A model generated the notes under the pieces. It saw only the letters and a program-made list of their open reading frames with translations, had not been told where the DNA came from and searched no databases. Positions 35,351-63,645 of a stretch of DNA of 64,000 nt are shown one piece after another; the first letter of the stretch is position 1; the number at the start of each line of letters is the position of its first letter. The translations under genes and the position numbers were made by a program. The stretch is taken from positions 24,626 through 88,625 of the forward strand of contig JAKPPT010000092.1 of the NCBI GenBank assembly GCA_029547205.1, written 5' to 3'. This DNA comes from Spirochaetota bacterium (GTDB lineage: Bacteria; Spirochaetota; Spirochaetia; Treponematales; UBA12059).

Positions 35351-35463
35351 CTTGCATGGTGATGTAGCAAAAATTAGTACCGTTAGTCAAGTAAACTCAT
35401 CTAGTGTGTCAACAGTAAACTGAGCTAGTGTCAGAAAACATGTACAAACTTCGTGACACCACG

Positions 35464-37398
35464 CTAGTTTTGCTCTAAAAAATGTTCACGGATAAAAGCA
35501 GCATATGCTGGCAACAACATAAGTTCTTCATGTGTACCAAAGCCGACTACCTTTCCTCTATCCAAGAACAGTATTTTGTCTACATACTGCAGCGTAGAGA
35601 GCCGGTGTGATACAATAATAAATGTCAGATTCTGTGCAAACGCATTGAGTTCATTCATGAGACGCTCTTCGTTTGCTGCATCAAGACTCGCTGTAATATC
35701 ATCAAAAACCATAAGCTCTGGTTTCCTGGCTATTGCGCGAGCTATAGCCATCCGCTGTTTTTGTCCACCAGAAAGACTTAAGCCTCGCTGTCCCACAACG
35801 GTAAGTTCTCTATCGGTAAAGTTAGCGACTTCATCGCTCATCTGGGATATACGTAAGGCTTGATTGAATACCGTGTCGTTCGGTTCATCAATAAAAAAAT
35901 CTATATTTTCCTTAAGCGTTCCAGAAAACAAAAGAGCTTCCTGCGGGACATACCCTATTTTTTTTGCATATGTTTCTGTATCGATTGCATCTAGCGGTAC
36001 GCCATTTATTTTTACCATACCTGAATCTGGAGGCAGCAAGCCGAGCAATACTTTAATGAGCGTCGATTTACCTGAGCCTACTGGACCAATAACCCCAAGT
36101 CGTTCACCCTTTGTTACTCTAAAACTTACCCCATCGAGCGCTTTTTCTACACGCCCCGGATAAGTGAACGATACTTCATTAAAATCGATTGTAGCTATAT
36201 CTATTGCTATTGTTTTCTCCTGAGGTGCGATACCTGGCACCGATACTCCGCCCTGCACCTGGATACCTGGCACCGGAACACTGCCCTCTAGCGGTACGTT
36301 GCCCTGCACCTGGATACCTGGCACCGATACGCCGCCCTGCACATGGATACCTGGCACCGGGTCCTTTTCCGAAGCGCTTTTTCCTGGTACCGGAAAGCTC
36401 GCCATCTCTTCCAGCCTATCAATATTTACAAAAGCTTTTTTGCCATATACGAAGAGCTGTGGTATATCCAGAATTGGATAAATGAGCATCATGAGGTATG
36501 TATAGAACGCATAAAACGTTCCGATGCTTATTTTTCCTCTCACCGCCATTAAGCCGCCGGCAAATACAATACCTACTTGAGCAACGAGGTCAATGTACTG
36601 ATAGATAAGGTGCAGAATCACATCGAGTTTTGCTGCAGTCATTTCGGTTTTCCAGCGTTTTTGCAACACCTCATTAAAAAACCTTCGATATTTATCCTCG
36701 CAGGCATACGCTTTGATAATTCGCACACCCGAAAAGCTCATTTCAAGCTGTTCATTGACCTCACTCACAGCTTTTTCGTTTTTCCTGTAAACATCATATA
36801 CCTTATCAGATGTTACCCAGAAGACTGCCAGCATGAGCGGCAAGGGAATGAGCGAAAAAAGCGTCAGCTTTGGACTAATGAGCATCATTGCAATGAGACA
36901 AAACAGCACTTTACTGATTGATTCCACTGCGCGAAAAATTCCTGAACACAAAAACCACGACAGCTTTGGAAAATCATAGAGATCGCTCGTCAGCCGTGTA
37001 ACAATATCACCCGTAGCAAATTCTGAAAAAAACTTATAATTCTTTTCAAGAATTTTCTTAAAAAATTTCATTCGGAGCAAATGTTCAAAAACAGAGTTTG
37101 TCATGCCACGTATTGCAGGAAAAAATGAGGCAATAAAACCACCAAATCCCACTGCAATTAAAAGCATTAAGAGTCTATCTATTTCCAACATCGGGTCGGT
37201 TGTGCCAGGATGCTCCAAAAGCCGTTGGATAGTATCAAGCAACAATTTAGAAATATATGGAAGCAACACCGCCACCGCACTCGAAATTAATGTGAGTACA
37301 AATAATAGTGCTACAAGTCCTTTTTTCTCACTCCAGAGTTTTCTAATCCAGGCAATATGATTAATGTTCAGCTGTTTGTAGTGTATTGTATCTGACAT
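35464..37398 (-). CDS. ABC exporter, fused permease/ATPase (MsbA-type), with repeat-derived linker insert
   Basis: Six-TM domain, then GPVGSGKST, LSGGQKQR and LMVFDD. ATG 37398 is preceded by GGAGGAGGAG. The linker carries VPGIHVQGGVSVPGIQVQG... repeats. Confidence 0.9.
   Translation of the reverse strand: MSDTIHYKQLNINHIAWIRKLWSEKKGLVALLFVLTLISSAVAVLLPYISKLLLDTIQRLLEHPGTTDPMLEIDRLLMLLIAVGFGGFIASFFPAIRGMTNSVFEHLLRMKFFKKILEKNYKFFSEFATGDIVTRLTSDLYDFPKLSWFLCSGIFRAVESISKVLFCLIAMMLISPKLTLFSLIPLPLMLAVFWVTSDKVYDVYRKNEKAVSEVNEQLEMSFSGVRIIKAYACEDKYRRFFNEVLQKRWKTEMTAAKLDVILHLIYQYIDLVAQVGIVFAGGLMAVRGKISIGTFYAFYTYLMMLIYPILDIPQLFVYGKKAFVNIDRLEEMASFPVPGKSASEKDPVPGIHVQGGVSVPGIQVQGNVPLEGSVPVPGIQVQGGVSVPGIAPQEKTIAIDIATIDFNEVSFTYPGRVEKALDGVSFRVTKGERLGVIGPVGSGKSTLIKVLLGLLPPDSGMVKINGVPLDAIDTETYAKKIGYVPQEALLFSGTLKENIDFFIDEPNDTVFNQALRISQMSDEVANFTDRELTVVGQRGLSLSGGQKQRMAIARAIARKPELMVFDDITASLDAANEERLMNELNAFAQNLTFIIVSHRLSTLQYVDKILFLDRGKVVGFGTHEELMLLPAYAAFIREHFLEQN
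36229..36393. repeat. In-CDS copies of GATACCTGGCACC (4 exact, 1 degenerate)
   Basis: Copies start at 36229, 36262, 36313 and 36346. Spacings are 33, 51 and 33 nt, all multiples of 3. Confidence 0.9.
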
Positions 37399-37421
37399 AG
37401 TCTCCTCCTCCCCTATAAAGC

Positions 37422-39215
37422 TCACGTTGCCTCATCAAGTTCTGCATCTGCAGAAAGATCAGGGAATTGCAGACGGACCAGTTCTTCATACTCAGAATAC
37501 TCTGCAAGCAACTCATGATGCTTTCCTCGTGCTGCTATTCTGCCATTTTTGAAAAAAAGAATTTCATCAGCAGTAAGTATTGAAGAAAGCCTGTGCGCCA
37601 CAATGATAGCCGTTCTACCTTTAAGAAGATCTTTCATGCTCCGTTGAATTTTCTTTTCTGTAACTACATCAACACTTGCGGTTGCTTCATCCATAATGAT
37701 AATATCCGCATTAAAAACAACCGCTCGTGCAAATGAAATGAGCTGCTTTTCACCCATCGATAGATTGCCACCTCGTTCTGCAAGTTCAGTGTACGCACCA
37801 TGAGGTAGCCGCCGAACAAAATCATCAGCATGAACCGTTTCCAATGCTTTGAAAACATCGAGTTCGGTAAACTTATCATTATATACGCGTACATTTTCAA
37901 GGACTGTCCCCGGGAATAAATATATATCCTGCAACACAAGTCCAATATGTTTCCGCCATTCATGTAAATCAAGTGATTCCAATCGTACGCCATCAACAAG
38001 AATCTCACCACTCGTATATGGGTAAAACCTGCAGAGGAGGCTTACAGTTGTTGTTTTACCGGAACCAGAAGGACCAACAAGTGCAATGGTCTGTCCCTTT
38101 TTTACAGTAAATGAGACATGATCAAGCACCGGTTCGCCTTCTTTATAAGCAAAGGAAACATCACGGAACTCAATTGCATGCTTAAATTCAGGTTTGTTTG
38201 TAGGCGTTGCCACTGCTTCTTCAGGTTCAAGGCTCATAATCGAAAAAATACGTTCCATTGCAACGCGAGCCTGCTGAATACTCCGTACATTTTCCCCAAT
38301 TGCAAACAAAGGTTCAAACAACCGCATCCCATATTCAATGAAAACCAAGAGTGTCCCTACGGTTAAAACTCCTTTAAAGATTTGCGGCGCTGTTAATTTA
38401 ATGATGAGTGTAAGAAACAGCGGCCCAGCTAAAAATTGCAGCCCGCCCATAAAGATATACTCGATAAGACCAGCCCGAATCTCGATATCACGTTTTTCTT
38501 TACTTACTTTTTCTAGCTTGGAAACAGCCTTCTCTGTTTTTTTAAACACCTGGAGAACTTCTATACCCTGCACAAACTCTGTCACCACAGCACACACTTC
38601 TGCATACTTTTTTCTCGCTTTTTCATAAAGTGGCCTCAATTTATCAAAAACAAGTAAAAATGCAGCGAGTAAAAACGGTATCGGAATAAAAATAATGCCA
38701 GCAAGTTTTGCATCAATAGTAATGAAAACAATAAACATTCCAATAAAATAGATAATATTGGTGATGAGCATGATTGCAGTTTCGCTAAAAAGCTGTTTAA
38801 CCCGCTCAGTATCATTTTCCACACGAGCCATAAGCTCGCCAACCTGATGCTTATCAAAATATGCAACAGGTAGAGTAACCATGTGTGCAAACAGATCTGA
38901 TTTTATATTTGTCACAACATTTAGTCCCAGACGAACCATAAGCATGCTTTCGAAGTATGTGATAACACCCATAAAAATCACGAGAGCAAAATAGAGAAAC
39001 GCATACTGCAGCATGAGACTAACATCTTTTTGTGGAATAGCCTTATCGATAATTGCCCGGAGAATGAGCGGACCTGCCAGTCTAGAAGCAGTCACCGCCA
39101 GGAGTGCTAGCAAACCCAGAGCAAACAGAAACCAATACGGCTTGAAATATGAAAAAAATCGCTTGAACACCAGCCTCTTGCTGATATTTGTGTTTTGAAC
39201 TTGTGCTTCTGACAT
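37422..39215 (-). CDS. ABC exporter, fused permease/ATPase (MsbA-type)
   Basis: GPSGSGKTT, LSMGEKQL and IIIMDEATA. I prefer ATG 39215 (MSEAQVQNT, preceded by GGAGA). The track's N-terminal 59 aa are read through repeat DNA. Confidence 0.85.
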   Translation of the reverse strand: MSEAQVQNTNISKRLVFKRFFSYFKPYWFLFALGLLALLAVTASRLAGPLILRAIIDKAIPQKDVSLMLQYAFLYFALVIFMGVITYFESMLMVRLGLNVVTNIKSDLFAHMVTLPVAYFDKHQVGELMARVENDTERVKQLFSETAIMLITNIIYFIGMFIVFITIDAKLAGIIFIPIPFLLAAFLLVFDKLRPLYEKARKKYAEVCAVVTEFVQGIEVLQVFKKTEKAVSKLEKVSKEKRDIEIRAGLIEYIFMGGLQFLAGPLFLTLIIKLTAPQIFKGVLTVGTLLVFIEYGMRLFEPLFAIGENVRSIQQARVAMERIFSIMSLEPEEAVATPTNKPEFKHAIEFRDVSFAYKEGEPVLDHVSFTVKKGQTIALVGPSGSGKTTTVSLLCRFYPYTSGEILVDGVRLESLDLHEWRKHIGLVLQDIYLFPGTVLENVRVYNDKFTELDVFKALETVHADDFVRRLPHGAYTELAERGGNLSMGEKQLISFARAVVFNADIIIMDEATASVDVVTEKKIQRSMKDLLKGRTAIIVAHRLSSILTADEILFFKNGRIAARGKHHELLAEYSEYEELVRLQFPDLSADAELDEAT

Positions 39216-39392
39216 ATCTTGTCTCCAAACCTGCATACGATGCGGCACAATGCGGTAATCGGCATATCTTGTCTCCAAACCTGCATACGATGCGGCACAA
39301 TGCGGTAATCGGTACCAGGTATCCAATGCATGCTGTAATTCTGTACCAGGTATTGTGCAGTACCAGGTGCCAGGTTTTCTTAAATCTAGCAT
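39213..39392. repeat. 50-bp tandem duplication (x2) followed by four degenerate core-motif copies
   Basis: Unit catatcttgtctccaaacctgcatacgatgcggcacaatgcggtaatcgg at 39213-39262 and 39263-39312. It is followed by GGTACCAGGTATC, TGTACCAGGTATT and AGTACCAGGTGCCAGGTTTTC. Confidence 0.85.
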
Positions 39393-42631: not shown

Positions 42632-44086
42632 ATGAATAACGATCAGCAACAAAACATTTCTACTCCAAGTCAAACTATACTCAAACACAACAAATTCTGG
42701 CTTACAGTAGAAGGCGCTGCATCATCTGTATATCTCATTTTAACACAGGGTGCTCTTTTTACTGCTATTGCGATCTATTTCAAACTTACGACATTCTGGC
42801 TTTCTGTTACCACTGCATTTCCACTTGTGTTCCAGGTATTCCAGCTTATTGCTCCAACCATTATTAAACGGTCAAAAAACAGAGTAAGGCTGATGATTAT
42901 TTTCAATGCTGGCCGATTCATCTGGTTTATTCCGCTTGCAACTTCGCTCTTTGGCTTTTCATCTGCCTTAGAATTCATTGTGATTTTTGCAGTGAGCCAG
43001 CTCGCAAACGCTCTTGCTGGCAATGTGTGGGTGGGATTAAGCCGGGACCTCATTCCAGAACACGAACGCGGAAAATTTCTTGGGAGAAGAAATGTTGCAA
43101 TCAGCATTACCACAATGATTTCGACATATATCTATACTGCTATTCTCGATATACTCAGCAAACCTTTATCCATCATTATAACTATACTCATTGGCATGAT
43201 TGCTACAATCATTTCAATCATTGCCACGTTCCCAATTCGAGATATCAGTCTCCAGGAAATCAGCCAACAAAGCACAGGAAACCTGGCACCAGGAACAACA
43301 TTCGAAGAAAAATCGGCTGGAAACCTGGCACCAGGAACAAATAAACAAAAAACAGATTCTATAAAATCAAACTTGGTTTATTTATTTAGCTACAACAAGC
43401 AGTTGCTCCAGGATAGCAACATCAAACGATTTGTAATTGCAATGTTCGCGTGGAACTTTATTCTTCAACTAACTGCTCCGTTTTTTGCATATCACCAGAT
43501 CACCAATCTTTCTATGTCGATGCGATTGATCGGAATTACTTCCATCCTTACGAGTCTTCTTTCCATAATTTTTTACAGGATTTGGGGTGTTTTAGGTGAT
43601 AAACTTGGCCATAAATCAGTATTGGTGACAGGTATCAATATCGTTAGCCTTATCCCTATGCTATGGTTCTTTATGGGAAAACCGCTTTGGCCATACATGA
43701 TGGGTGTTGATGTACTCTTAACCGGACTTGGATGGTCAGCTATCGATCTTGGCATTTTAACCTTTGGAATGGAAATCGGTGGTAAAAACTCCAGTGCATG
43801 CTTTGCTCTCGCTAATGCAGGAGCGGGCATCAGCGGACTCGCTGGAGCTGTAGTAGGAGGCTTCCTGGGACAAAAACTTAAGCCAATAAACCTGACACTC
43901 TGGTCTTTCGAAATCAATGGTCTTCAATTTTTATTTCTTGTTGGTGGACTTTTACGGTTTTTAGGTCTTGCTCTCTTCAAAAAAGTACAGGCAGCTAACT
44001 ATGCAAAACCAGGTGTCATGGTTACGAATGTGCTTTCAATTATTGCACGACGCTTTGCAATCCGTCCCGCTGAACTTGATGAGTAA
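42632..44086 (+). CDS. MFS transporter with repeat-derived central-loop insert
   Basis: 484 aa with multiple TM helices. The central loop contains GNLAPGT twice. Confidence 0.7.
   Translation: MNNDQQQNISTPSQTILKHNKFWLTVEGAASSVYLILTQGALFTAIAIYFKLTTFWLSVTTAFPLVFQVFQLIAPTIIKRSKNRVRLMIIFNAGRFIWFIPLATSLFGFSSALEFIVIFAVSQLANALAGNVWVGLSRDLIPEHERGKFLGRRNVAISITTMISTYIYTAILDILSKPLSIIITILIGMIATIISIIATFPIRDISLQEISQQSTGNLAPGTTFEEKSAGNLAPGTNKQKTDSIKSNLVYLFSYNKQLLQDSNIKRFVIAMFAWNFILQLTAPFFAYHQITNLSMSMRLIGITSILTSLLSIIFYRIWGVLGDKLGHKSVLVTGINIVSLIPMLWFFMGKPLWPYMMGVDVLLTGLGWSAIDLGILTFGMEIGGKNSSACFALANAGAGISGLAGAVVGGFLGQKLKPINLTLWSFEINGLQFLFLVGGLLRFLGLALFKKVQAANYAKPGVMVTNVLSIIARRFAIRPAELDE
43277..43340. repeat. 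Two in-CDS copies of GGAAACCTGGCACCAGGAACAA
   Basis: Identical 22-mers at 43277 and 43319, 42 nt apart. They contain the perfect palindrome CCTGGCACCAGG. Confidence 0.9.
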
Positions 44087-48715: not shown

Positions 48716-49452
48716 GAAACCTGCTCCTTATCATCCACAAGTTCCAAAAATAGATTTTCAAGTGACGTATCTTTTCCTTTAAGTTCACGAAGCTCATCAA
48801 GCGAACCGGTGAATAGTATCTTCCCCTTATTGATAATAGCAAGCTTATCGCATACCCGCTCTGCAACCTCCATTACATGCGTCGAAAAGAAAACACACTT
48901 ACCGGCATTAGCACGTTCCCGCATGAGCTCTTTGAGCTTAAATGCCGCATGCGGATCAAGCCCAACCATCGGTTCATCGAGAAGCCAATTTTGCGGATCT
49001 GGAAGCAAACTTCCCGCAATAATAAGCTTTTGCTTCATACCGCGAGAATAACTTGCTATTTTAGCATTGAGCACATCTGCAATTTCGAATATCGTCGTGT
49101 ACCGTTCTATCGCAGCATACCTGGCACCTTTGCCTAAATCATAAACATCTGCGATAAAATTGAGATATTCAATACCTTTTAACCGGCTAAACAACTCAGG
49201 ATTATCTGGTACAAACCCTATAGCATGTTTCGCCTTCAAATCATCGGAGATGGTAGAATGACCATTGACAAGAACCGTACCCTCATCCGCTTGCAGCGAG
49301 CCGGTTATTAATTTAAGCGTTGTTGTTTTTCCAGCTCCATTTGGCCCCAAAAAACCAAAAATACAGCCATCAGGTACTGTAAGGCTAATAGCATCAAGCG
49401 CTTTTGTTTTTGCTCGGTTATACGTCTTGCTCACCGCATTAATCTCAATCAT
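48712..49452 (-). CDS. ABC transporter ATP-binding protein
   Basis: GPNGAGKTT, YSRGMKQKL and WLLDEP. Confidence 0.9.
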   Translation of the reverse strand: MIEINAVSKTYNRAKTKALDAISLTVPDGCIFGFLGPNGAGKTTTLKLITGSLQADEGTVLVNGHSTISDDLKAKHAIGFVPDNPELFSRLKGIEYLNFIADVYDLGKGARYAAIERYTTIFEIADVLNAKIASYSRGMKQKLIIAGSLLPDPQNWLLDEPMVGLDPHAAFKLKELMRERANAGKCVFFSTHVMEVAERVCDKLAIINKGKILFTGSLDELRELKGKDTSLENLFLELVDDKEQVS

Positions 49453-49476: not shown

Positions 49477-49727
49477 GAAACCTGGCACCGCAATCTATCG
49501 ATACCTGGCACTGCAAAGTTCAAATCAGTCCAAAGGGAACCCTGACACCGCTTGCACAGCCAGAACGCGCCCGCTGACTGAAACATGGGGAAACCTGGCA
49601 CCGCAGACACTTTCCGCAGGCACTTTAGGAAACCAAGGGCTCGCTTTTGATACCTGGCACCTAACTGGCTAATGGCTCATGGCTTGTTATACCTGGCACC
49701 TAACTGGCTACTGGCTCATGGCTTGTT
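49477..49727. repeat. Intergenic repeat cluster A (~6 copies, CCTGGCACC orientation)
   Basis: GAAACCTGGCACCGC appears twice and GATACCTGGCACTGC once. A 39-bp unit, ATACCTGGCACCTAACTGGCTA(A/C)TGGCTCATGGCTTGTT, appears twice. Confidence 0.9.
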
Positions 49728-50700: not shown

Positions 50701-52563
50701 TTATTCCTCCGTCAATCGAGTTCCCCTGAATACCTTTTCAACTATTTGCGCAGGACTTTCAGTTGTACCAGAATCTTCTATCTCATGAGATTCTTGACTA
50801 TGCTCGGTTGAATTTTGCACAACATATGCATGTATTTGAATAACTCGATTAAACACTTTTTGTAAAATAGGATTGATTACCGAACTTTCTGCATTAATTT
50901 TATCTGCCTCAAAATTTGAAACACAGGATACTTCTAACCTGTCACCCTTTATCGACCAATCTTCTGTTCTGGAAAGAATCGCATTAAGCATCAAATTTTG
51001 CTTACCCAGTGCAGTAATTACCCTCTCCTTTTCAGCTATTGCAGTATCAGTAGCAGAATCTGACTGTTCAGAAATATAACCACTGGAATCTACACTTTTG
51101 CCGCGAGAAACCGCGATTGAAACTGCGCCGATGCCTGGTTTAACTGCACTGGTGCCAGGTTTCCCATCACCGATGCCAGGTTTAGTTGCGCTAGCAGTGC
51201 TAACTGTACTGGTACCAGGTTTTGAATCGACTGCTGATGCACCTCGGCTACTACCCACCATGTTGGCCTCGCTGGCCAGTTCAACGGTGCCAGGTTTAGT
51301 TGCGCTGGAAACTGCGCTGGTGCCAGGTTTCCCATCAGGTTTATTTGATTTATCCACTGAAGAAGCTTGAGAACTCAATGAGATTAGTTTTTCTGCAATT
51401 CCACTTGCGTTTTGAGTATTCCCTTCACTAAGAGCATGTTTCAAATTGGTTAAGATTTCAAAAATCTCAGAACGTGAAATAAGCGCTCGTATTTCACAGA
51501 GCATTACCAATGCAAGTTCTATTTCATATCGGGGGTTAACGCTGTACCGCATGTTTCTATAGATATCAAGAAGCACAGCAAGCATCCGTTCCAGGTGTCG
51601 TGTTTCGAGCGCTGACACTTGTTCCGGCACTGATTCTTTTGAAAACCCTAAAAGTTCCTGTTTCTCGACACCAGCTTTTATAAAAAGGAGCGTACGAACA
51701 TATTGAATAGTATCAACTAAGAGCTGCTCAATTGAAACACCTGAAGATACAATTGATTCAACAAGTTCGATTGTTTTAGCCTTATCTCCTTGTGCTACCG
51801 TGCTTATCAGCATACCAATTCGTTCAGAACCGACAATACCTAGTTTATCCTGAATTACCGACAGCCTGATATGTCCCTCAGAAAATGAAGCCACTTGATC
51901 AAACATGGTATACGCATCGCGGAGAGAACCAGTTGCCTCTCGCGCTATCCACATGAGCGCATCATCATCAGCCACAATACCTAAATCCTGCGCTGCCGAT
52001 GCAAGCCTTTCCTTAATAACAGCAAGCGGAATCAATCTAAAAACAAATTGCTGACACCGGCTGCGGATGGTAGCTGGTACCTTATGCAGTTCAGTCGTTG
52101 CAAATATAAAAACAATATATGGCGGAGGTTCTTCGATAGTTTTCAACAGTGCATTAAAGGCACTGTTAGAGAGCATGTGTACTTCATCAATAATGTAGAT
52201 TTTATATTTAGAGAAGTTAGGCGGGAAAAGCACCTCATCTTTAATTTGACGTACATTATCAACTGACGTGTTGGACGCACCATCAATTTCAATAACATCC
52301 AATGACGCACCTTTGGTGATAGCATGACACGAATTGCATACCCCGCATGGTTCTGCGGTTGGCCCTCGTTCACAATTGAGAGATTTTGCAAGTATTCGTG
52401 CTGTACTTGTTTTACCGCAACCTCGAGGACCAGAGAAAAGATATGCATGCGCTATCCTTCCCGATTCTATTGAAGCCTTGAGCGTAATCGAAACAAAATC
52501 CTGTCCCGCCAGCTCATCAAAATTCTGAGGCCGCTTGCGGTTTGCTGTCACTTCATACGCCAT
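50701..52563 (-). CDS. dnaX: DNA polymerase III subunit gamma/tau, with repeat-derived insert
   Basis: GPRGCGKTS, zinc module CERGPTAEPCGVCNSC, and DEVHML. The variable region carries KPGT repeats. Confidence 0.93.
   Translation of the reverse strand: MAYEVTANRKRPQNFDELAGQDFVSITLKASIESGRIAHAYLFSGPRGCGKTSTARILAKSLNCERGPTAEPCGVCNSCHAITKGASLDVIEIDGASNTSVDNVRQIKDEVLFPPNFSKYKIYIIDEVHMLSNSAFNALLKTIEEPPPYIVFIFATTELHKVPATIRSRCQQFVFRLIPLAVIKERLASAAQDLGIVADDDALMWIAREATGSLRDAYTMFDQVASFSEGHIRLSVIQDKLGIVGSERIGMLISTVAQGDKAKTIELVESIVSSGVSIEQLLVDTIQYVRTLLFIKAGVEKQELLGFSKESVPEQVSALETRHLERMLAVLLDIYRNMRYSVNPRYEIELALVMLCEIRALISRSEIFEILTNLKHALSEGNTQNASGIAEKLISLSSQASSVDKSNKPDGKPGTSAVSSATKPGTVELASEANMVGSSRGASAVDSKPGTSTVSTASATKPGIGDGKPGTSAVKPGIGAVSIAVSRGKSVDSSGYISEQSDSATDTAIAEKERVITALGKQNLMLNAILSRTEDWSIKGDRLEVSCVSNFEADKINAESSVINPILQKVFNRVIQIHAYVVQNSTEHSQESHEIEDSGTTESPAQIVEKVFRGTRLTEE
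51130..51331. repeat. Six in-CDS motif copies inside dnaX
   Basis: GATGCCTGGTTTA 51130, GGTGCCAGGTTTC 51151, GATGCCAGGTTTA 51172, GGTACCAGGTTTT 51211, GGTGCCAGGTTTA 51286, GGTGCCAGGTTTC 51319. Confidence 0.9.
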
Positions 52564-52579
52564 GCGTTTAGCATATCAT

Positions 52580-53070
52580 GGTGCCAGGTTTATAGTAAAC
52601 TAGGCAACAGGTTATTGTTATTTTTGTTTTTTTGGTACCAGGTATCAGATTTTGTTTGCTGCGCCAAGCCATTGGCGAAAACCTTCGGTGCCAGGAAAAC
52701 CTTCGGTGCCAGGTATCTAATAGCTGAATGTTTCATGAAAACCATTGGTGCCAGGTAATACATGGCCAAGTCTTTGAGAAGATTTTAGGTGTCAAGTTTC
52801 CCTAGCATATAGGTTTATGATAACATTTTCCCAGCATGCAAATGCACATGGCCAAGTATGCGGTGCCAGGTTTCTGATAGTTAAGTATACGGTGCCAGGT
52901 TTCTGATAGCTACCAGGTTTCTGATAGCTATAGCTAAGTATAGCTAAGTATGCGGTGCCAGGTTTCTGATAGCTAAAATATTGGATTTATGACACGTTTT
53001 ATTGACTACACGTAATCCGACAAGCAGTCCGGTGCCAGGTATCTCTAGATACGGTGCCAGGTATCTCTAG
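52580..53070. repeat. Intergenic repeat cluster B (~12 copies, GGTGCCAGG orientation)
   Basis: Begins 17 nt upstream of the dnaX ATG. Includes local tandems such as CGGTGCCAGGTTTCTGATAGCTA and CGGTGCCAGGTATCTCTAGATA (x2). Confidence 0.9.
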
Positions 53071-53159: not shown

Positions 53160-53292
53160 GTGGGTTCCTGCAACCATAAGGTCAGGCTTGGCATGGCACA
53201 AGATCATTCTGCTTACCGTTGCTTCCTTCCGGACCTGGCGGGGTTAGGCAGCGAACCTTTGCATGGAGCCTGACCATATTGTTGCAGGAAAA
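53160..53292 (-). ncRNA. ffs: Signal recognition particle RNA (small/4.5S type)
   Basis: The minus strand reads ...CCAGGUCCGGAAGGAAGCAACGGUAAGCAG..., matching the conserved domain IV core. The flanking arms UUCCUGCAAC..GGUCAGGCU and AGCCUGACC..GUUGCAGGAA pair into one long hairpin. Classic position upstream of dnaX. Confidence 0.8.
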
Positions 53293-53360: not shown

Positions 53361-53448
53361 CGGAGAGAGAGGGATTTGAACCCTCGGTGCCCTTTAGGAG
53401 CACACACGACTTCCAATCGTGCACCTTCGGCCGCTCGGTCATCTCTCC
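53361..53448 (-). tRNA. tRNA-Ser (anticodon GGA)
   Basis: Minus strand: GGAGAGA acceptor stem, anticodon stem CACGA/TCGTG with loop TTGGAAG, long variable arm, and T-arm GGTTCAAATCC. CCA is not encoded. Confidence 0.88.
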
Positions 53449-53630: not shown

Positions 53631-54173
53631 TTATGTTGCAATAACTGAACTAAAGTCATAGTTTTCTTGAGAAAATTTTTCATATAGATTTTTAATTTCA
53701 TCGCTTATCCAATTTAAAAATATTTTAAAGCCCTTTTTAAAAAATAACAAACCACTCCAAAACCACTCGTCTGGCCTTTTTACCATTTTTGCTTTCACAG
53801 GATTTAAAATTATATATTTCAAAACACGTTCTACATCCTGTATTCTCATCAACGGCTCTGAAAAATATCTACCAGCCCAAAAATGTCCTACTAAATCGTT
53901 AATTGCATTAAATTTCTTTGCAAACGTTACTAAAAGCCTTTGCATTATCTTAGGAAGCTCCTTACAATCCCTTGGTTTAATAAGCAGATGAATATGATTA
54001 TCCATTAAAGTAAAACCTTCTACATTAAACTGATACTCTTTTTGCAACTTTTTTAATATTTTCATAAACATCTTTTTTAGACCAGAACGTTGCAGAAAGT
54101 AAGTTTGATAATTCGTTCGCGCTGTAATATGATACGTTGCCCCTGGAATTAGCAATCTCGGTTTTCTTGGCAT
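53631..54173 (-). CDS. rayT: REP-associated tyrosine transposase (RAYT; IS200/IS605-like Y1 HUH family)
   Basis: 180 aa. YHITARTN, HUH motif DNHIHLLIKP, GHFWAGRYFSEP, and the catalytic-Tyr motif KYIILNPVKAKMV. Single gene with no IS ends or tnpB. Visibly more AT-rich than its neighbours. Confidence 0.8.
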   Translation of the reverse strand: MPRKPRLLIPGATYHITARTNYQTYFLQRSGLKKMFMKILKKLQKEYQFNVEGFTLMDNHIHLLIKPRDCKELPKIMQRLLVTFAKKFNAINDLVGHFWAGRYFSEPLMRIQDVERVLKYIILNPVKAKMVKRPDEWFWSGLLFFKKGFKIFLNWISDEIKNLYEKFSQENYDFSSVIAT

Positions 54174-54307: not shown

Positions 54308-54469
54308 GAAACCTGACACCATAAATCCAGAAACCTGACACCATAATTTTTTAAGTTCTAGTTTTGGTGGCAGGTTTCTAATTTTCTACAAGAAGTGCGC
54401 TTATTGGTGCTTGTGAAGCATTTAGCTGTGATTCGTACCATGTTTCCATGTTTCTCGGTGCCAGGTTTC
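54308..54469. repeat. Repeat cluster C upstream of RAYT (2 copies in each orientation)
   Basis: GAAACCTGACACC at 54308 and 54330. GGTGGCAGGTTTC at 54366 and GGTGCCAGGTTTC at 54457. Confidence 0.85.
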
Positions 54470-57788: not shown

Positions 57789-57797
57789 TCTTAATCA

Positions 57798-59221
57798 AAT
57801 TAGCAACTCACTAGCGCCTCGCAGAAACCAAAACCTGGCACCTTTCTCCCCATTCTCTCAGATCCAACGAAACATGGCACCCTTTGGCCCTCCGCAACCG
57901 GGGACCCTTTATTGAGAAACCTGACACCGTTCTCCCCATTCTCTCAGACCCAACGAAACATGGCACCGTTCTCGCAGACCTCGCCGAAGAGCTGCGCCTA
58001 TCAAACCGAAACCTGGCACCATTCCCGCAAACCTAAAACCTGGAACCTGGAAACCTGGCACCGATCTCGCAGTTCTCAAAACCTGGAAACCTGGCACCGT
58101 TCTCGCAAACCTAAAACCTGGAACCTGGAAACCTGGCACCGATCTCGCAGTCCTCGCCGAAGAGCTGCGCCCATCAAACCGAAACCTGGCACCGTTCTCG
58201 CAGACCTCGCCTGGAAACCTGGCACCTTTCTCCCCATTCTCTCAGACCCAACGAAACCTGACACCTTTCTCGCAGTCCTCGCCGATTAAGAGCCGCGCCC
58301 ATCAAACCGAAACCTGAGGAAACCAACCTGGAAACCTGGCGCCCTTTATTGGGAAACCTGGCACCGTTCTCGTAGTCCCGATTCGAAACCTGGCACCCTT
58401 TGGCCCTCTGCAAATTAGCAACTCACTAGCGCCTCGCAGAAACCAAAACCTGGAAACCTGGAACCAAATGAAACATGGAAAGCAACCTGGAACCCGGAAA
58501 CCTGGAAACCAACCTGGAACCCGGAAACCTGGCACCAAATACTTTGAGACGCCCACCGCAACATGGGACCCCTTATTGAGAAACCTGGCACCTTTCTCCC
58601 CGTTCTCTCAGACCCAACGAAACCTGGCACCCTTTGGCCCTCTGCAACCTGGGACCCGGAAACCTGGAAACCTGGCGCCCTTTATTGGGAAACCTGGCAC
58701 CGTTCTCGTAGTCCCGATTCGAAACCTGGCACCATTCCCGCAGACATCGCCGATTAAGAGCTGCGCCCATCAAACCGAAACCTGGCACCCTTTGGCCCTC
58801 CGCAACCTGGCGCCCTTTATTGAGAAACCTGGCACCGTTCTCGCAGACATCGCCGATTAAGAGCTGCGCCTATCAAACCGAAACCTGACACCATGGCACT
58901 TGATTTCTTTCAAACCGAAACCTGGCACCGTTCTCGCAGTCCCGATTCGAAAACCTGGCACCGTTCTCGCAGTCCCGATTCGAAAACCTGGCACCGTTCT
59001 CGCAGTCCTCGCCGAAGAGCTGCACCCATCAAACCGAAACATGGAACCTGGCACCCTTTGGCCCTCCGCAACCTGGGACCCCTTATTGAGAAACCTGGCA
59101 CCGTTCTCGCAGTCCCGATTCGAAACCTGACACCATGGCACTTGATTTCTTTCAAACCGAAACCTGGCACCACGGCACTTCAGGCACTTATTTCTTAAGG
59201 CACCATGGCACTTGATTTCTT
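57798..59221. repeat. ~1.4 kb single-orientation array of GAAACCTGGCACC modules (about 30-35 copies by hand count)
   Basis: Every module starts with the core and carries one of about four tail types. Includes a 33-bp tandem (x3) at ~58915-59013. A higher-order repeat, AAATTAGCAACTCACTAGCGCCTCGCAGAAACCAAAACCTGG, occurs at 57798 and 58413. Confidence 0.95.
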
Positions 59222-59349
59222 AAAAAAATCTATTATTCTTTATTTGTGGAGTTTGTTTTGCTGTTTGTATTTGACAACTTGATTATGATAGTTCTATCAT
59301 ATATAGTAGATATAAAATATCAAACAATATCATTTGCAAGAGGGGTACC

Positions 59350-61162: not shown

Positions 61163-61580
61163 GGTGCCAGGTTTCAAAATAGCCATTTGGTGCCAGGTTT
61201 CGTTCCAAGTGCAGATATAGAGAAAAACCGGTGCCAGGTATCGCTATAAATCCCAAAGTCTGTGACAAGCAAGAAGGCCGGTGCCAGGTTTCCCATTTGT
61301 GTCATTTGGAGGTGCCAGGTATCCCCACTGGTACCCTACAGCTTCAACAAAAGTTAGCAATGGAGCGATTGGTGCCAGGTATCCCCACTGGTACCCCACA
61401 GCTTCAACAAAAGTTAGCAATGGAGCGATTGGTGCCAGGTATCAGTATGGGATTGGTGCCAGGTATCGCTATACCAGGTTTCCCATTTGTGTCATTTGGA
61501 GGTGCCAGGTATCCCCACTGGTGCCCCACAGCTTCAACAAAAGTTAGCAATGGAGCGATTGGTGCCAGGTATCAGTATGG
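61163..61580. repeat. Intergenic repeat cluster F (~11 copies, GGTGCCAGG orientation) with 60-bp tandem units
   Basis: The 60-bp unit GGTGCCAGGTATCCCCACTGGTACCC(T/C)ACAGCTTCAACAAAAGTTAGCAATGGAGCGATT occurs at 61311, 61371 and 61501. Confidence 0.92.
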
Positions 61581-61625
61581 AGCGGCCTATTTACAAAATA
61601 CCGTAATACTGTACAATGAAGATTA

Positions 61626-62798
61626 ATGAAATTTGCCTCAAGAATATTGCACCCTGCGGTATATATTTGCTGGTTTCTGGTTTTAGTTTTCTCAGCTTGC
61701 AAACAAGCAGAAACCACCACAAAACCTCCGAATCCTCATGAATCGGTCAAATTTTCTGTGACACTATCAAAAACAGAACCTGAAATTGTCTATTTTGATG
61801 CAGACAGGCCACTCAACGAAGCTTTTTCTCTTACGAAACCTGGCACCAAAGCGTTATTACCTTATCCACTCCAAAAGCGGCCTGCGCTTTTTGTTCCGTT
61901 GGACAAATCCTCAATACTTCTCTTAGTTAACAAAGTAGGCTTTGTTCAACTCACTTTTACAGCAAACGCAGATGTATCTACAACGATACAATTTGATTCT
62001 CCAGTCTCTGTTGAAGGTGTACCAGTAAACCAGTACTCTGCAGGTTCAGTTTGGCAAACGAATAATCACCAATATCTACTATTGTATAAAGATCATGTAC
62101 TCGACACTGACTGGGCAGCAACAGTTTTATTTGAATTTTCTGGTGACACTGTCTCACGGATAGAAATCCCACCACATCCTGAAAATAAACGCTATGAACC
62201 GTACTGGATTTTCCCAACAAGCGAAAACACCTGGCTTATCCAATATCGTTACATAATTGGAGACCGATCGTATACAACATATGCTTCATGGGACCGTAAA
62301 CACAATAAACTTTCGGAGCTCACACGCACCTCTTTTGAACGCCAACTCACTCCAATCACCTTTGAAAAAGCTCCTGCACCCATTCGTCTCATAGCTGAAC
62401 ATATATCAGAACCCGTTCTATTAGAGTACCGTGATAGCAATGGAGCCATTCATTATATCAATAACAAAAATCTCGATGATGCTGTTCTTGGCATCGCAGA
62501 AACCAACAATTACGGCACTTTTGTCCTTCTGGAAGATGGCCGATACTGGATCGCTCGGGGACAGGTACCACCATCAGTTTCTTCATCTGAAAATCAAACA
62601 ATCACTCCGAAACAACAGCAATCAGCAATATCCTTTTCAGGAACACCACCAGTGACTATAGGGCAGGCTACTGTACCTGTTGATGATGTTCATTTTAGAA
62701 ATGCAATATTGACTGATACCGTGTTTATCAGCACCTGGGAAGAAAATGGTTTTCCAGAGACGGGAATGAGCGGTCTCTTTCTTTTTCAGCTTCCGTAA
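61626..62798 (+). CDS. Hypothetical lipoprotein
   Basis: 390 aa with a lipobox-like LVFSAC. Contains one exact motif copy at 61835-61847, read as KPGT. Confidence 0.55.
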   Translation: MKFASRILHPAVYICWFLVLVFSACKQAETTTKPPNPHESVKFSVTLSKTEPEIVYFDADRPLNEAFSLTKPGTKALLPYPLQKRPALFVPLDKSSILLLVNKVGFVQLTFTANADVSTTIQFDSPVSVEGVPVNQYSAGSVWQTNNHQYLLLYKDHVLDTDWAATVLFEFSGDTVSRIEIPPHPENKRYEPYWIFPTSENTWLIQYRYIIGDRSYTTYASWDRKHNKLSELTRTSFERQLTPITFEKAPAPIRLIAEHISEPVLLEYRDSNGAIHYINNKNLDDAVLGIAETNNYGTFVLLEDGRYWIARGQVPPSVSSSENQTITPKQQQSAISFSGTPPVTIGQATVPVDDVHFRNAILTDTVFISTWEENGFPETGMSGLFLFQLP

Positions 62799-62868: not shown

Positions 62869-63645
62869 ATGAAATATCGGTGCCAGGTATCAAAAAAGGT
62901 TTTCCGTTTATCAAAACATGCAATCAAAAAATATTTGTGCATCCTTGCTATTTTTTTAACATCGTATTCCGTTTTTGCCTTTGATATTACTCATGCAGGC
63001 GGATCACTCGGTGTGCTCATCATCAATAATACGGTTCCCGAATCAGCACCGAACCCGGTTGTAAATACCATTGGTGGATTTGCCAATTTTACATTTACTT
63101 CGGTGCCAGGTTTCGCCCCTGGTTCTTCGGTGCCAGGTTTCGCCCCTGGTTTTTTCCTCTCAACAGCTCTCGACATACTCTGGCTCAATTATGAAAACCG
63201 AGACGGTATTGCTGTGCCTACAGAAACAGAAACTGGTAACGGCAATAACGTTTTTGTTATCGGTTTACTGCTCGATGTACCGTTAGGATATGTATTTTAT
63301 TTTGGACCGCCTGTTACCGAATCATTACCGCATCGATTTTCAGCTACCTTACTTGCAGGCACATCTTTTTTATTTCGTATCTGCATGAATGGTGATACAA
63401 CCGAAGCTTATGCAAGCGTGATGGAACAAAACCGCATTGCTGTTGCCCAGTACCTCTGGGGGAATGGTAGGTGGTTTTATCCAATGATAAGCGGGAAATT
63501 CGGTATTGTGCTTCAAGAAACGTTTACATTCACAGTAGGCGCAAAGTGGTACATCCCCATATTCAATCTTTGGACAACCGATGATAATTCATTTTTCAAT
63601 GCAAGTATGCTGGCAATTCAGCTTGCAATGCAAATTTCCCTGTAA
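62869..63645 (+). CDS. Hypothetical exported/OM protein with repeat-derived segments
   Basis: 258 aa with a hydrophobic N-terminus. Motif copies at codons 3-8 (YRCQVS) and in SVPGFAPGSSVPGFAPG. Confidence 0.5.
   Translation: MKYRCQVSKKVFRLSKHAIKKYLCILAIFLTSYSVFAFDITHAGGSLGVLIINNTVPESAPNPVVNTIGGFANFTFTSVPGFAPGSSVPGFAPGFFLSTALDILWLNYENRDGIAVPTETETGNGNNVFVIGLLLDVPLGYVFYFGPPVTESLPHRFSATLLAGTSFLFRICMNGDTTEAYASVMEQNRIAVAQYLWGNGRWFYPMISGKFGIVLQETFTFTVGAKWYIPIFNLWTTDDNSFFNASMLAIQLAMQISL
63099..63149. repeat. Two in-CDS copies of TTCGGTGCCAGGTTTCGCCCCTGG
   Basis: Copies at 63099-63122 and 63126-63149, 27 nt apart. Their 22-mer core is identical to the intergenic copy at 55894-55915. Confidence 0.9.

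Follow-up and report, generated by a model that had tools for sequence, protein, structure and literature searches.

The window analysed here is a stretch of 64,000 nt from a Spirochaetota bacterium (assembly GCA_029547205.1, contig JAKPPT010000092.1, positions 24,626 to 88,625). On its minus strand lie two adjacent genes for ATP-binding cassette (ABC) half-transporters. One of the two contains an array of short repeats, in frame, at the junction of the transmembrane domain (TMD) and the nucleotide-binding domain (NBD). Further copies of the repeated motif occur between genes and inside several other genes, and the densest arrays surround a gene for a REP-associated tyrosine transposase (RAYT; REP, repetitive extragenic palindromic). 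The features are listed in Table 1.

The repeat array and its exporter

A preliminary description of the window, made from its letters, had claimed four exact copies of GATACCTGGCACC and one degenerate copy, with spacings of 33, 51 and 33 nt. Sequence reading, repeat finding and a motif search all recover this arrangement. In plus-strand coordinates, the exact copies lie at 36229-36241, 36262-36274, 36313-36325 and 36346-36358, and the degenerate copy, CCTGGTACC, lies at 36383-36391, 33 nt beyond the fourth exact copy. The array is in frame within the minus-strand open reading frame (ORF), and its units encode (V/P)PGI(H/Q)VQGG; the translation contains the peptide originally described exactly. 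That the insert keeps the frame and falls at the TMD-NBD junction agrees with the ORF translation, the Pfam bounds and the structure model, which place the units after the final membrane helix and before the ATPase domain's first strand. Chance is ruled out as the source of the repeats because the expected number of matches to the 13-mer, allowing up to two mismatches, is only 0.83 for the window as a whole. Tandem Repeats Finder (score 30) does not report the ABC array because the unit lengths differ. The 20-nt spacer of the ABC units has no occurrence elsewhere in the window, and the units were therefore built locally and not imported whole.

The insert-bearing chain has the domain order of a type IV (ABCB-like) exporter half-transporter. 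The six-helix, N-terminal ABC_membrane domain (PF00664, residues 39-317, 8.5e-37) is followed by ABC_tran (PF00005, residues 430-579, 9.1e-31). Residue numbers follow the 653-aa ORF. The true start of the gene is probably the ATG at 37398, as judged from sequence: it matches the MSDT... start of an NCBI-annotated member of the same protein cluster (P0122, from a metagenome-assembled genome record) and of an orthologue without the insert (P0002). Foldseek matches the chain to TmrAB, TM287/288 and BmrCD with probability 1.00 and TM-scores of 0.65-0.75. By structure, the closest solved chains are TmrB, TM287 and BmrC; by sequence, they are the P-glycoprotein halves and, among bacterial half-transporters, BmrC and TM287. 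The earlier label of an MsbA-type exporter is correct at the level of the fold but does not extend to MsbA proper. Neither ABC subunit reaches any NCBIfam equivalog cut-off, and the lipid A exporter MsbA is rejected with 258 bits against a cut-off of 602 (TIGR02203) and 198 against 867 (NF008381).

The two half-transporters are 26% identical overall in pairwise alignment. The absence of the insert from the neighbouring paralogue, which had been pointed out before, is confirmed, and there is no motif copy inside the coding sequence of that gene. The same adjacent gene pair is found in all syntenic loci. In the insert-bearing chain, Asp replaces the catalytic Glu after Walker B (FDDITASLD) and the signature is canonical (LSGGQ). 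In the partner chain, the Walker B Glu is canonical (IIMDEATASVD) and the signature is degenerate (LSMGE). Residues D575 and D576 are invariant across 85 orthologues, and all ATPase motifs of the insert-bearing ORF (Walker A, signature, Walker B and H-loop) are intact. On these features, the protein is predicted to be a subunit of a type IV ABC exporter that is heterodimeric and has one degenerate ATP site, similar to TmrAB, TM287 and BmrC. TM287/288, TmrAB and BmrCD likewise consist of two adjacent half-transporter genes, with one chain lacking the catalytic Glu and the other having a deviant signature. The solved chains have 568-577 residues and a short TMD-NBD connection, whereas the chain described here has an insert of ~45 residues that is predicted to be disordered.

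In an AlphaFold2 model built from 85 orthologues (mean predicted local distance difference test score, pLDDT, 79), both domains are confident. The last TMD helix spans residues 301-342 and the first NBD strand spans residues 412-420. Residues 351-401 have a pLDDT of ~29-39 and no secondary structure, and the insert is therefore predicted to loop out as a disordered segment, which answers the structural question raised in the preliminary description. The TMD-NBD linker is 20 aa long in 64 of the 85 orthologues. Several other lineages contain unrelated low-complexity expansions of 45-78 aa at the same place, and the linker site therefore appears to be recurrently permissive. Such expansions are found in P0118, which has REYSR repeats, and in P0120, P0066, P0119, P0095 and P0106. 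Two other proteins (P0009 and P0021) have a GDR-rich insert just after the first NBD strand. When the 61-residue insert peptide is searched against 1.84 billion representative proteins, only weak matches to unrelated low-complexity repeats are found. The insert is therefore not a known peptide module.

Relatives and alleles of the insert

Among the 120 homologues listed, the insert is found only in the 90%-identity cluster of the window protein. Conservation of the insert in distant homologues that lack the nucleotide repeat, named at the outset as the finding that would speak against a repeat-built linker, is not observed: neither the 85%-identical syntenic orthologue (P0002) nor any more distant one has the insert. 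P0002, encoded at fully syntenic loci (L002-L005), has a single TTTCCGGTGCCAGGTGCT (FPVPGAS) at the insert site and no repeat, and GGTGCCAGGT encodes PVPG there. The 79%-identical orthologue has CCGGTACCAGC at the same site. Because these orthologues without the insert hold a single copy at this place, one copy of the 10-nt core existed before the insert did, as Pro-Val-Pro-Gly codons.

The insert is polymorphic in length among near-identical strains, with at least three alleles, a point for which a survey of strains had been proposed. Within the 90% protein cluster and six further look-ups, an allele with units of 33-33-33-51-33 nt is present in 15 contigs from JGI, ENA and NCBI (P0001, P0122, P0125 and P0126). 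The window type, 33-33-51-33, is present in 2 contigs. A JGI sample (L094) has a mosaic 33-51-33 allele in which unit ends are swapped and the degenerate unit lacks 3 nt. Between a second JGI sample (L001) and the window there are 30 substitutions over 14.5 kb, besides the 33-nt unit; between L094 and the window there are 22 over 6.4 kb. Since 7 of these 22 fall inside the repeat (36247-36364), the repeat evolves much faster than its surroundings. Insert-specific patterns have no match in a collection of metagenome contigs, which evidently does not contain the samples L001 and L094, where the insert exists.

An assembly artefact or a dead gene is extremely unlikely as the source of the insert. 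Repeats do break or collapse short-read assemblies; two partial proteins (P0123 and P0124) end inside the repeat, and runs of N are present in L089 and L096. Yet at least 18 contigs, from NCBI, ENA and JGI assemblies, contain the insert, the ORF is intact with all of its ATPase motifs, and the DNA flanking the insert is 99.7-99.8% identical between alleles.

A dispersed repeat family

The repeat had been treated as local to the ABC gene, and this does not hold. The 13-mer belongs to a lineage-specific, dispersed and mostly intergenic family that is also present in frame in other genes. The window contains 82 matches to it with up to two mismatches. No 10-mer in the window is commoner than the core ACCTGGCACC, which has 64 copies; the family core is GAWACCTG-N-CACC. 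Of 75 copies, 64 lie at 48-64 kb. Most copies belong to intergenic arrays of direct repeats at 49.5-49.7, 52.6-53.1, 57.8-59.2 and 61.2-61.6 kb, in which the spacers vary from 22 to 139 nt. The non-coding DNA from 32.5 kb onward (6.8 kb) holds 55 copies and the coding DNA (24.7 kb) holds 18, or 8.1 against 0.73 per kb. Adjacent copies within 150 nt of each other have the same orientation in 54 cases and the opposite orientation in 1. Identical 13-mers head repeat units at 11 or more other loci. Read directly, all six frames of the motif are free of stop codons. Beyond the right end of the window, the next 10 kb contain a single motif copy; about 84 kb of the genome are covered in total.

The largest array fills the 1561-nt intergenic region (57789-59349) between the genes for a methyl-accepting chemotaxis protein (MCP) and a STAS protein, with mosaic spacers of 22-139 nt. 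In L090 and L097 this region measures 1639 nt, and in L098 it measures 1606 nt. The versions differ by one 78-nt and one 33-nt indel, each starting exactly at the 13-mer, and by zero substitutions. Two other versions, of 1661 nt in L096 and +155 nt in L089, contain runs of N and are disregarded; the apparent +155-nt allele is a scaffold gap and not a real variant. Assemblies also break or are filled with N at other motif arrays, near 49620 in L089, at contig ends near 49500 in L090 and L092, and inside the ABC insert (P0123 and P0124). The lack of stop codons in every frame of the motif lets ORFs of 100-131 aa run through the arrays at 57912-59198 and 61231-61626. Some of these ORFs are called as genes by public pipelines (for example 104, 130 and 131 aa in L088, L090 and L097); they are probably spurious.

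Inside genes, every one of the seven spacings between motif copies is divisible by three; in non-coding DNA, 17 of 47 are. The variable linker of DnaX, the gamma/tau subunit of DNA polymerase III, is ~40 aa longer than in orthologues that are 75-80% identical, and the 13-mer there runs in the opposite orientation to that in the ABC insert. In a transporter similar to the major facilitator superfamily (MFS), the NLAPGT copies replace unrelated sequence. The gene for a 258-aa protein contains two copies in frame and a further copy at codons 4-7 (62879).

These copies bear on two alternative explanations of the ABC insert. The first, implicit in the preliminary description, is a private tandem duplication, in which slippage affected the ABC gene alone and matches elsewhere are coincidental. 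The unit spacer is indeed unique to the ABC gene, and the units are tandem with alleles that differ by whole units, as simple slippage would give. This explanation is very unlikely, because the same 13-mer heads units at 11 or more other loci, the core has 64 exact copies, similar in-frame expansions are found in DnaX, the MFS protein and the 258-aa protein, and a sister species has the same family with a one-base variant.

The second is an adaptive linker, that is, an elastin-like tether rich in Pro and Gly and selected for altered coupling between the membrane and ATPase domains or for recruitment of a partner. It would fit the retention of the frame and of all catalytic motifs in every allele, the likeness of VPG-containing units to flexible tethers, and the location of the insert in the subunit with the degenerate ATP site. 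Against it, the closest sister species, with identical gene order, has no insert, and near-clonal strains differ in the number and sequence of the units. The insert is also predicted to be disordered, its peptide has no relatives beyond the weak low-complexity matches mentioned above, and other lineages fill the same site with unrelated sequence. Elsewhere the motif writes different peptides (KPGT, NLAPGT and VPGF), which argues for a cause at the DNA level. On balance, selection for the peptide is improbable.

Table 1. Features of the window that relate to the repeat family. Positions count from the first letter of the window. For single sites, the variable base of the motif is given for the window and for the sister species.
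Feature	Position	Strand	Remarks
Insert-bearing ABC half-transporter gene	35464..37425	-	ORF of 653 aa from GTG
In-frame repeat array	36229..36391	-	encodes residues ~345-399 (653-aa ORF numbering)
Degenerate 33-nt unit	36391-36359	-	encodes PVPGKSASEKD
33-nt unit	36358-36326	-	headed by GGTGCCAGGTATC
51-nt unit	36325-36275	-	headed by GGTGCCAGGTATC
33-nt unit	36274-36242	-	headed by GGTGCCAGGTATC
Terminal motif copy	36241-36229	-	closes the array
Partner ABC half-transporter gene	37422..39215	-	597 aa; immediately upstream, co-oriented; no insert at the TMD-NBD junction
Two motif copies upstream of the partner gene	39311..39378	-	beside a ~60-nt tandem duplication (39205-39320)
Two motif copies in the MFS-like transporter gene (42632-44086)	43278..43336	+	NLAPGT twice, in a divergent central loop
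Intergenic motif cluster	49480..49704	+	5 copies, flanked by recR and an ABC ATPase gene; a site of contig breaks in other assemblies
Motif copies in the DnaX linker (gene 50701-52563)	51151..51331	-	KPGT ~5 times, including near-copies
Intergenic direct array	52580..53065	-	10 copies; upstream of dnaX
RAYT (Y1/HUH) gene	53631..54173	-	180 aa; 17 kb from the ABC insert, amid the densest arrays
Motif copies in the RAYT 5' flank	54308..54469		four copies, canonical 13-mer and variants
Largest direct array	57830..59175	+	>30 copies of GAAACCTGGCACC; between the MCP and STAS genes
Intergenic direct array	61163..61573	-	10 copies, including 60-nt units; under a probably spurious 131-aa ORF
Two motif copies in the gene for a 258-aa protein (62869-63645)	63102..63141	-	SVPGFAPG twice
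Site in the ABC gene, PVPG	36232		window G, sister G
Site in a coding sequence, Ala to Asp (GAR to GDR)	49119		window G, sister T
Site in the DnaX linker	51319		window G, sister T
Site just upstream of the dnaX ATG	52580		window G, sister T
Site in a coding sequence, KPGT to KPVT	61838		window G, sister T
Site in a coding sequence	62879		window G, sister G
Site in a coding sequence	63102		window G, sister G

The sister species (GCA_964630305.1, loci L002 and L086) contains the same family with a different prevalent variant, ACCTGTCACC. The variable base is T in 21 copies and G in 5 copies in 36 kb of the sister species. In the window, where the family is of the GAWACCTGGCACC / GAWACCTGNCACC type, it is G in 64 copies, T in 4, A in 6 and C in 1. 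The array between the STAS and MCP genes is shorter in the sister species (508 against 1561 nt). The comparison of single sites is limited to orthologous copies with conserved flanks. At 49119, 51319, 52580 and 61838 the orthologous copies differ at exactly one base. Since copies with conserved flanks differ in this G/T manner even inside genes, the sequences suggest that the repeat family changes in concert at the DNA level. The ABC site is of the G type and may have been able to expand only in the species in which G is the active variant.

The neighbouring transposase and the origin of the insert

The RAYT passes the equivalog cut-off of NCBIfam NF047646 (REP_Tyr_transpos, 87 bits against 80) and contains the Pfam domain Y1_Tnp. 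Its best match in the PDB is 4er8, the Escherichia coli TnpA-REP. The HUH motif is present as HIH, and a tyrosine is aligned to Tyr115. There is one RAYT copy in ~84 kb, it lies at the same locus in the sister species, and the next homologue is 39% identical. The sister-species RAYT has an in-frame stop before the tyrosine. The only inverted motif pair in the window (54330-54378) is in the 5' flank of the RAYT gene and forms a 13-bp hairpin stem with a fold z of -3.2.

The genomic setting resembles that of REP sequences and REPINs (REP doublets forming hairpins) with their RAYTs, as defined in PMC3116915, PMC5581495 and PMC3479197. A short motif is over-represented and mainly extragenic, a RAYT gene lies among the copies and is syntenic in the sister species, and each species has its own motif variant. 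The abundant oligomer is found in the extragenic flank of the RAYT gene. This feature does not discriminate here because most intergenic regions at 49-62 kb also hold the motif. The structure of the repeats is different. The 13-mer and its units are not palindromic, and both the arrays and the ABC insert fold worse than shuffled sequences on both strands (z +1.2 to +2.3). The copies form direct arrays with variable spacers and not the inverted doublets of REPINs or bacterial interspersed mosaic elements (BIMEs), and some lie inside genes. The assignment of the repeats to REPs or REPINs fails because they are not palindromic and are almost never in inverted pairs.

Direct insertion by the RAYT is a third alternative for the ABC insert. 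It would involve a cut at the pre-existing GGTGCCAGGT in single-stranded DNA, pasting of motif-bearing units in the manner of REPs and REPINs, and continued addition and removal of units by strand transfer between copies. The RAYT is intact in its HUH motif and catalytic Tyr, motif density peaks around its gene, where the flanking copies include the hairpin-forming inverted pair, and all indels cut exactly at the motif. The sister species, with its RAYT stop codon, has shorter arrays and another motif variant. Known RAYTs, however, recognise REPs that are hairpins (PMC3479197, PMC3116915), whereas the units here fold poorly and are direct by 54 to 1. The flanking hairpin is absent in the sister species, slippage equally predicts indels bounded by the motif, and the comparison rests on two species. 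Direct insertion is thus possible but doubtful, and a driving role of the tyrosine transposase in the repeat process in general is equally tentative.

A more specific proposal is that the neighbouring RAYT-type HUH enzyme recognises GAWACCTG-N-CACC. In contrast to known RAYTs, it would then act on a non-palindromic site and multiply this site as direct arrays, and VPGI and KPGT would thereby be written into permissive loops in essential proteins. A separate master variant in each species (G here, T in the sister) would replace older copies even at orthologous coding sites and at the cost of amino-acid changes. This proposal is speculative and rather unlikely to hold in full.

The explanation preferred here, with a probability of about 0.75, is that the insert is a minisatellite-like expansion. 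It would have nucleated at an existing motif copy, would change by exchange of units from motif to motif under a filter for the reading frame, and would be tolerated as a disordered loop in a permissive linker. The ancestral linker held one 10-nt core, in which the codons CCG GTG CCA GGT read Pro-Val-Pro-Gly. That site is now occupied, in this species, by a minisatellite whose 33- and 51-nt units all have the 13-mer at their head, and whole motif-to-motif units are still being gained, lost and shuffled. In genes, only length variants that are multiples of three would survive; the absence of stop codons from all six frames of the motif keeps the gene open. The extra ~45 residues, rich in Pro, Gly, Val and Gln, would be a disordered loop that connects the last membrane helix to the ATPase domain. 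Because the linker position is naturally permissive, the exporter most likely works as before, and the loop most likely has no function of its own. Unit turnover would occur by slippage or unequal exchange between identical 13-mers and might, with some doubt, be promoted by the RAYT encoded 17 kb away.

Several points weigh against this explanation or parts of it. The activity of the exporter with the insert is predicted from sequence and from a model. A genome-wide spread of the family is an extrapolation from ~84 kb. The link to the transposase is circumstantial: the repeats are non-palindromic and nearly all direct, the hairpin in the RAYT flank is not conserved in the sister species, and many intergenic regions carry the motif, not just the RAYT flanks. 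All sequences come from metagenome assemblies, in which repeats may be resolved wrongly. The two contigs of the partial proteins P0123 and P0124 stop within the insert, and one scaffold has a run of N in an array. The concern about mis-assembly is offset by the recurrence of alleles in independent assemblies.

The minisatellite-like expansion can be compared with two further kinds of bacterial repeats. Mycobacterial interspersed repetitive units (MIRUs), which are minisatellites with a variable number of tandem repeats (VNTR), and neisserial intergenic mosaic elements are also intergenic direct arrays that vary in unit number between strains, and they also form mosaics of recurring spacers separated by a short conserved repeat. 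Here the units, of 22-139 nt, have no regular length, and conservation is limited to the 13-mer at their head; a shared origin is not in evidence. Rickettsia palindromic elements (RPEs) are selfish repeats in frame in protein-coding genes, are palindromic and ~100-150 bp long, and each encode one conserved peptide (PMC10969869). As with RPEs, several unrelated conserved genes (those of the ABC exporter, DnaX, the MFS protein and the 258-aa protein) contain in-frame copies of one family at sites where the fold can accommodate them. The differences are that the shared element is only 13 nt long, is not palindromic and grows by local tandem expansion, and that the motif is read in various frames and orientations as VPGI, KPGT, NLAPGT and VPGF. 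The phenomenon therefore acts like RPE-type in-frame repeats and VNTR minisatellites in a REP-RAYT genomic setting and has the structure of neither REPs nor RPEs.

The ABC linker insert alone is probably an ordinary, neutral low-complexity expansion; the repeat family behind it is unusual. Together they provide a clear, datable case of a dispersed bacterial repeat that remodels conserved proteins. The state before expansion, a single PVPG-coding copy, is kept in the sister species, and the state after expansion is present as several alleles in near-clonal strains. The family is a possible atypical substrate of a REP-associated transposase: its 13-nt core is not palindromic, its copies form direct arrays, its variant is specific to the species, and orthologous sites appear to change in concert. 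The arrays fragment metagenome assemblies and generate spurious ORF calls, and they would make good VNTR markers for strain typing of this uncultured digester spirochaete.

Other readings of the motif were considered. A sigma-54 promoter (TGGCAC-N5-TTGC, GG-N10-GC) is rejected. The motif contains TGGCAC and some array units satisfy GG-N10-GC; the ABC units have no -12 element, and the sister variant, TGTCAC, has no GG. A sigma-54-dependent response regulator is encoded ~3 kb right of the window (L096, 13791-15176). DNA uptake sequences and Chi-type sites are ruled out because the copies cluster in arrays and their spread is uneven. A literature search for the core sequence gives only unrelated primer matches. 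Rfam has no match for the arrays and identifies only a signal recognition particle (SRP) RNA and a tRNA. The bacterial small SRP RNA and tRNA genes are at 53177-53275 and 53361-53448, both on the minus strand, between the transposase gene and the array upstream of dnaX.

Two further repeats flank the exporter genes. The ~60-nt duplication at 39205-39320 includes the Shine-Dalgarno sequence and the ATG of the partner ABC gene. Together with the two motif copies (region 39205-39392), it opens a spurious N-terminal ORF extension of 59 codons. The partner is called as 656 aa by JGI in L001 and L094, against 597 aa in the orthologue from a relative (L002). A 24-nt tandem repeat with 1.9 copies, AGTAAACTCAGCTAGGTGTCAAC, lies at 35390-35433, in the intergenic region just downstream of the insert-bearing ABC gene.

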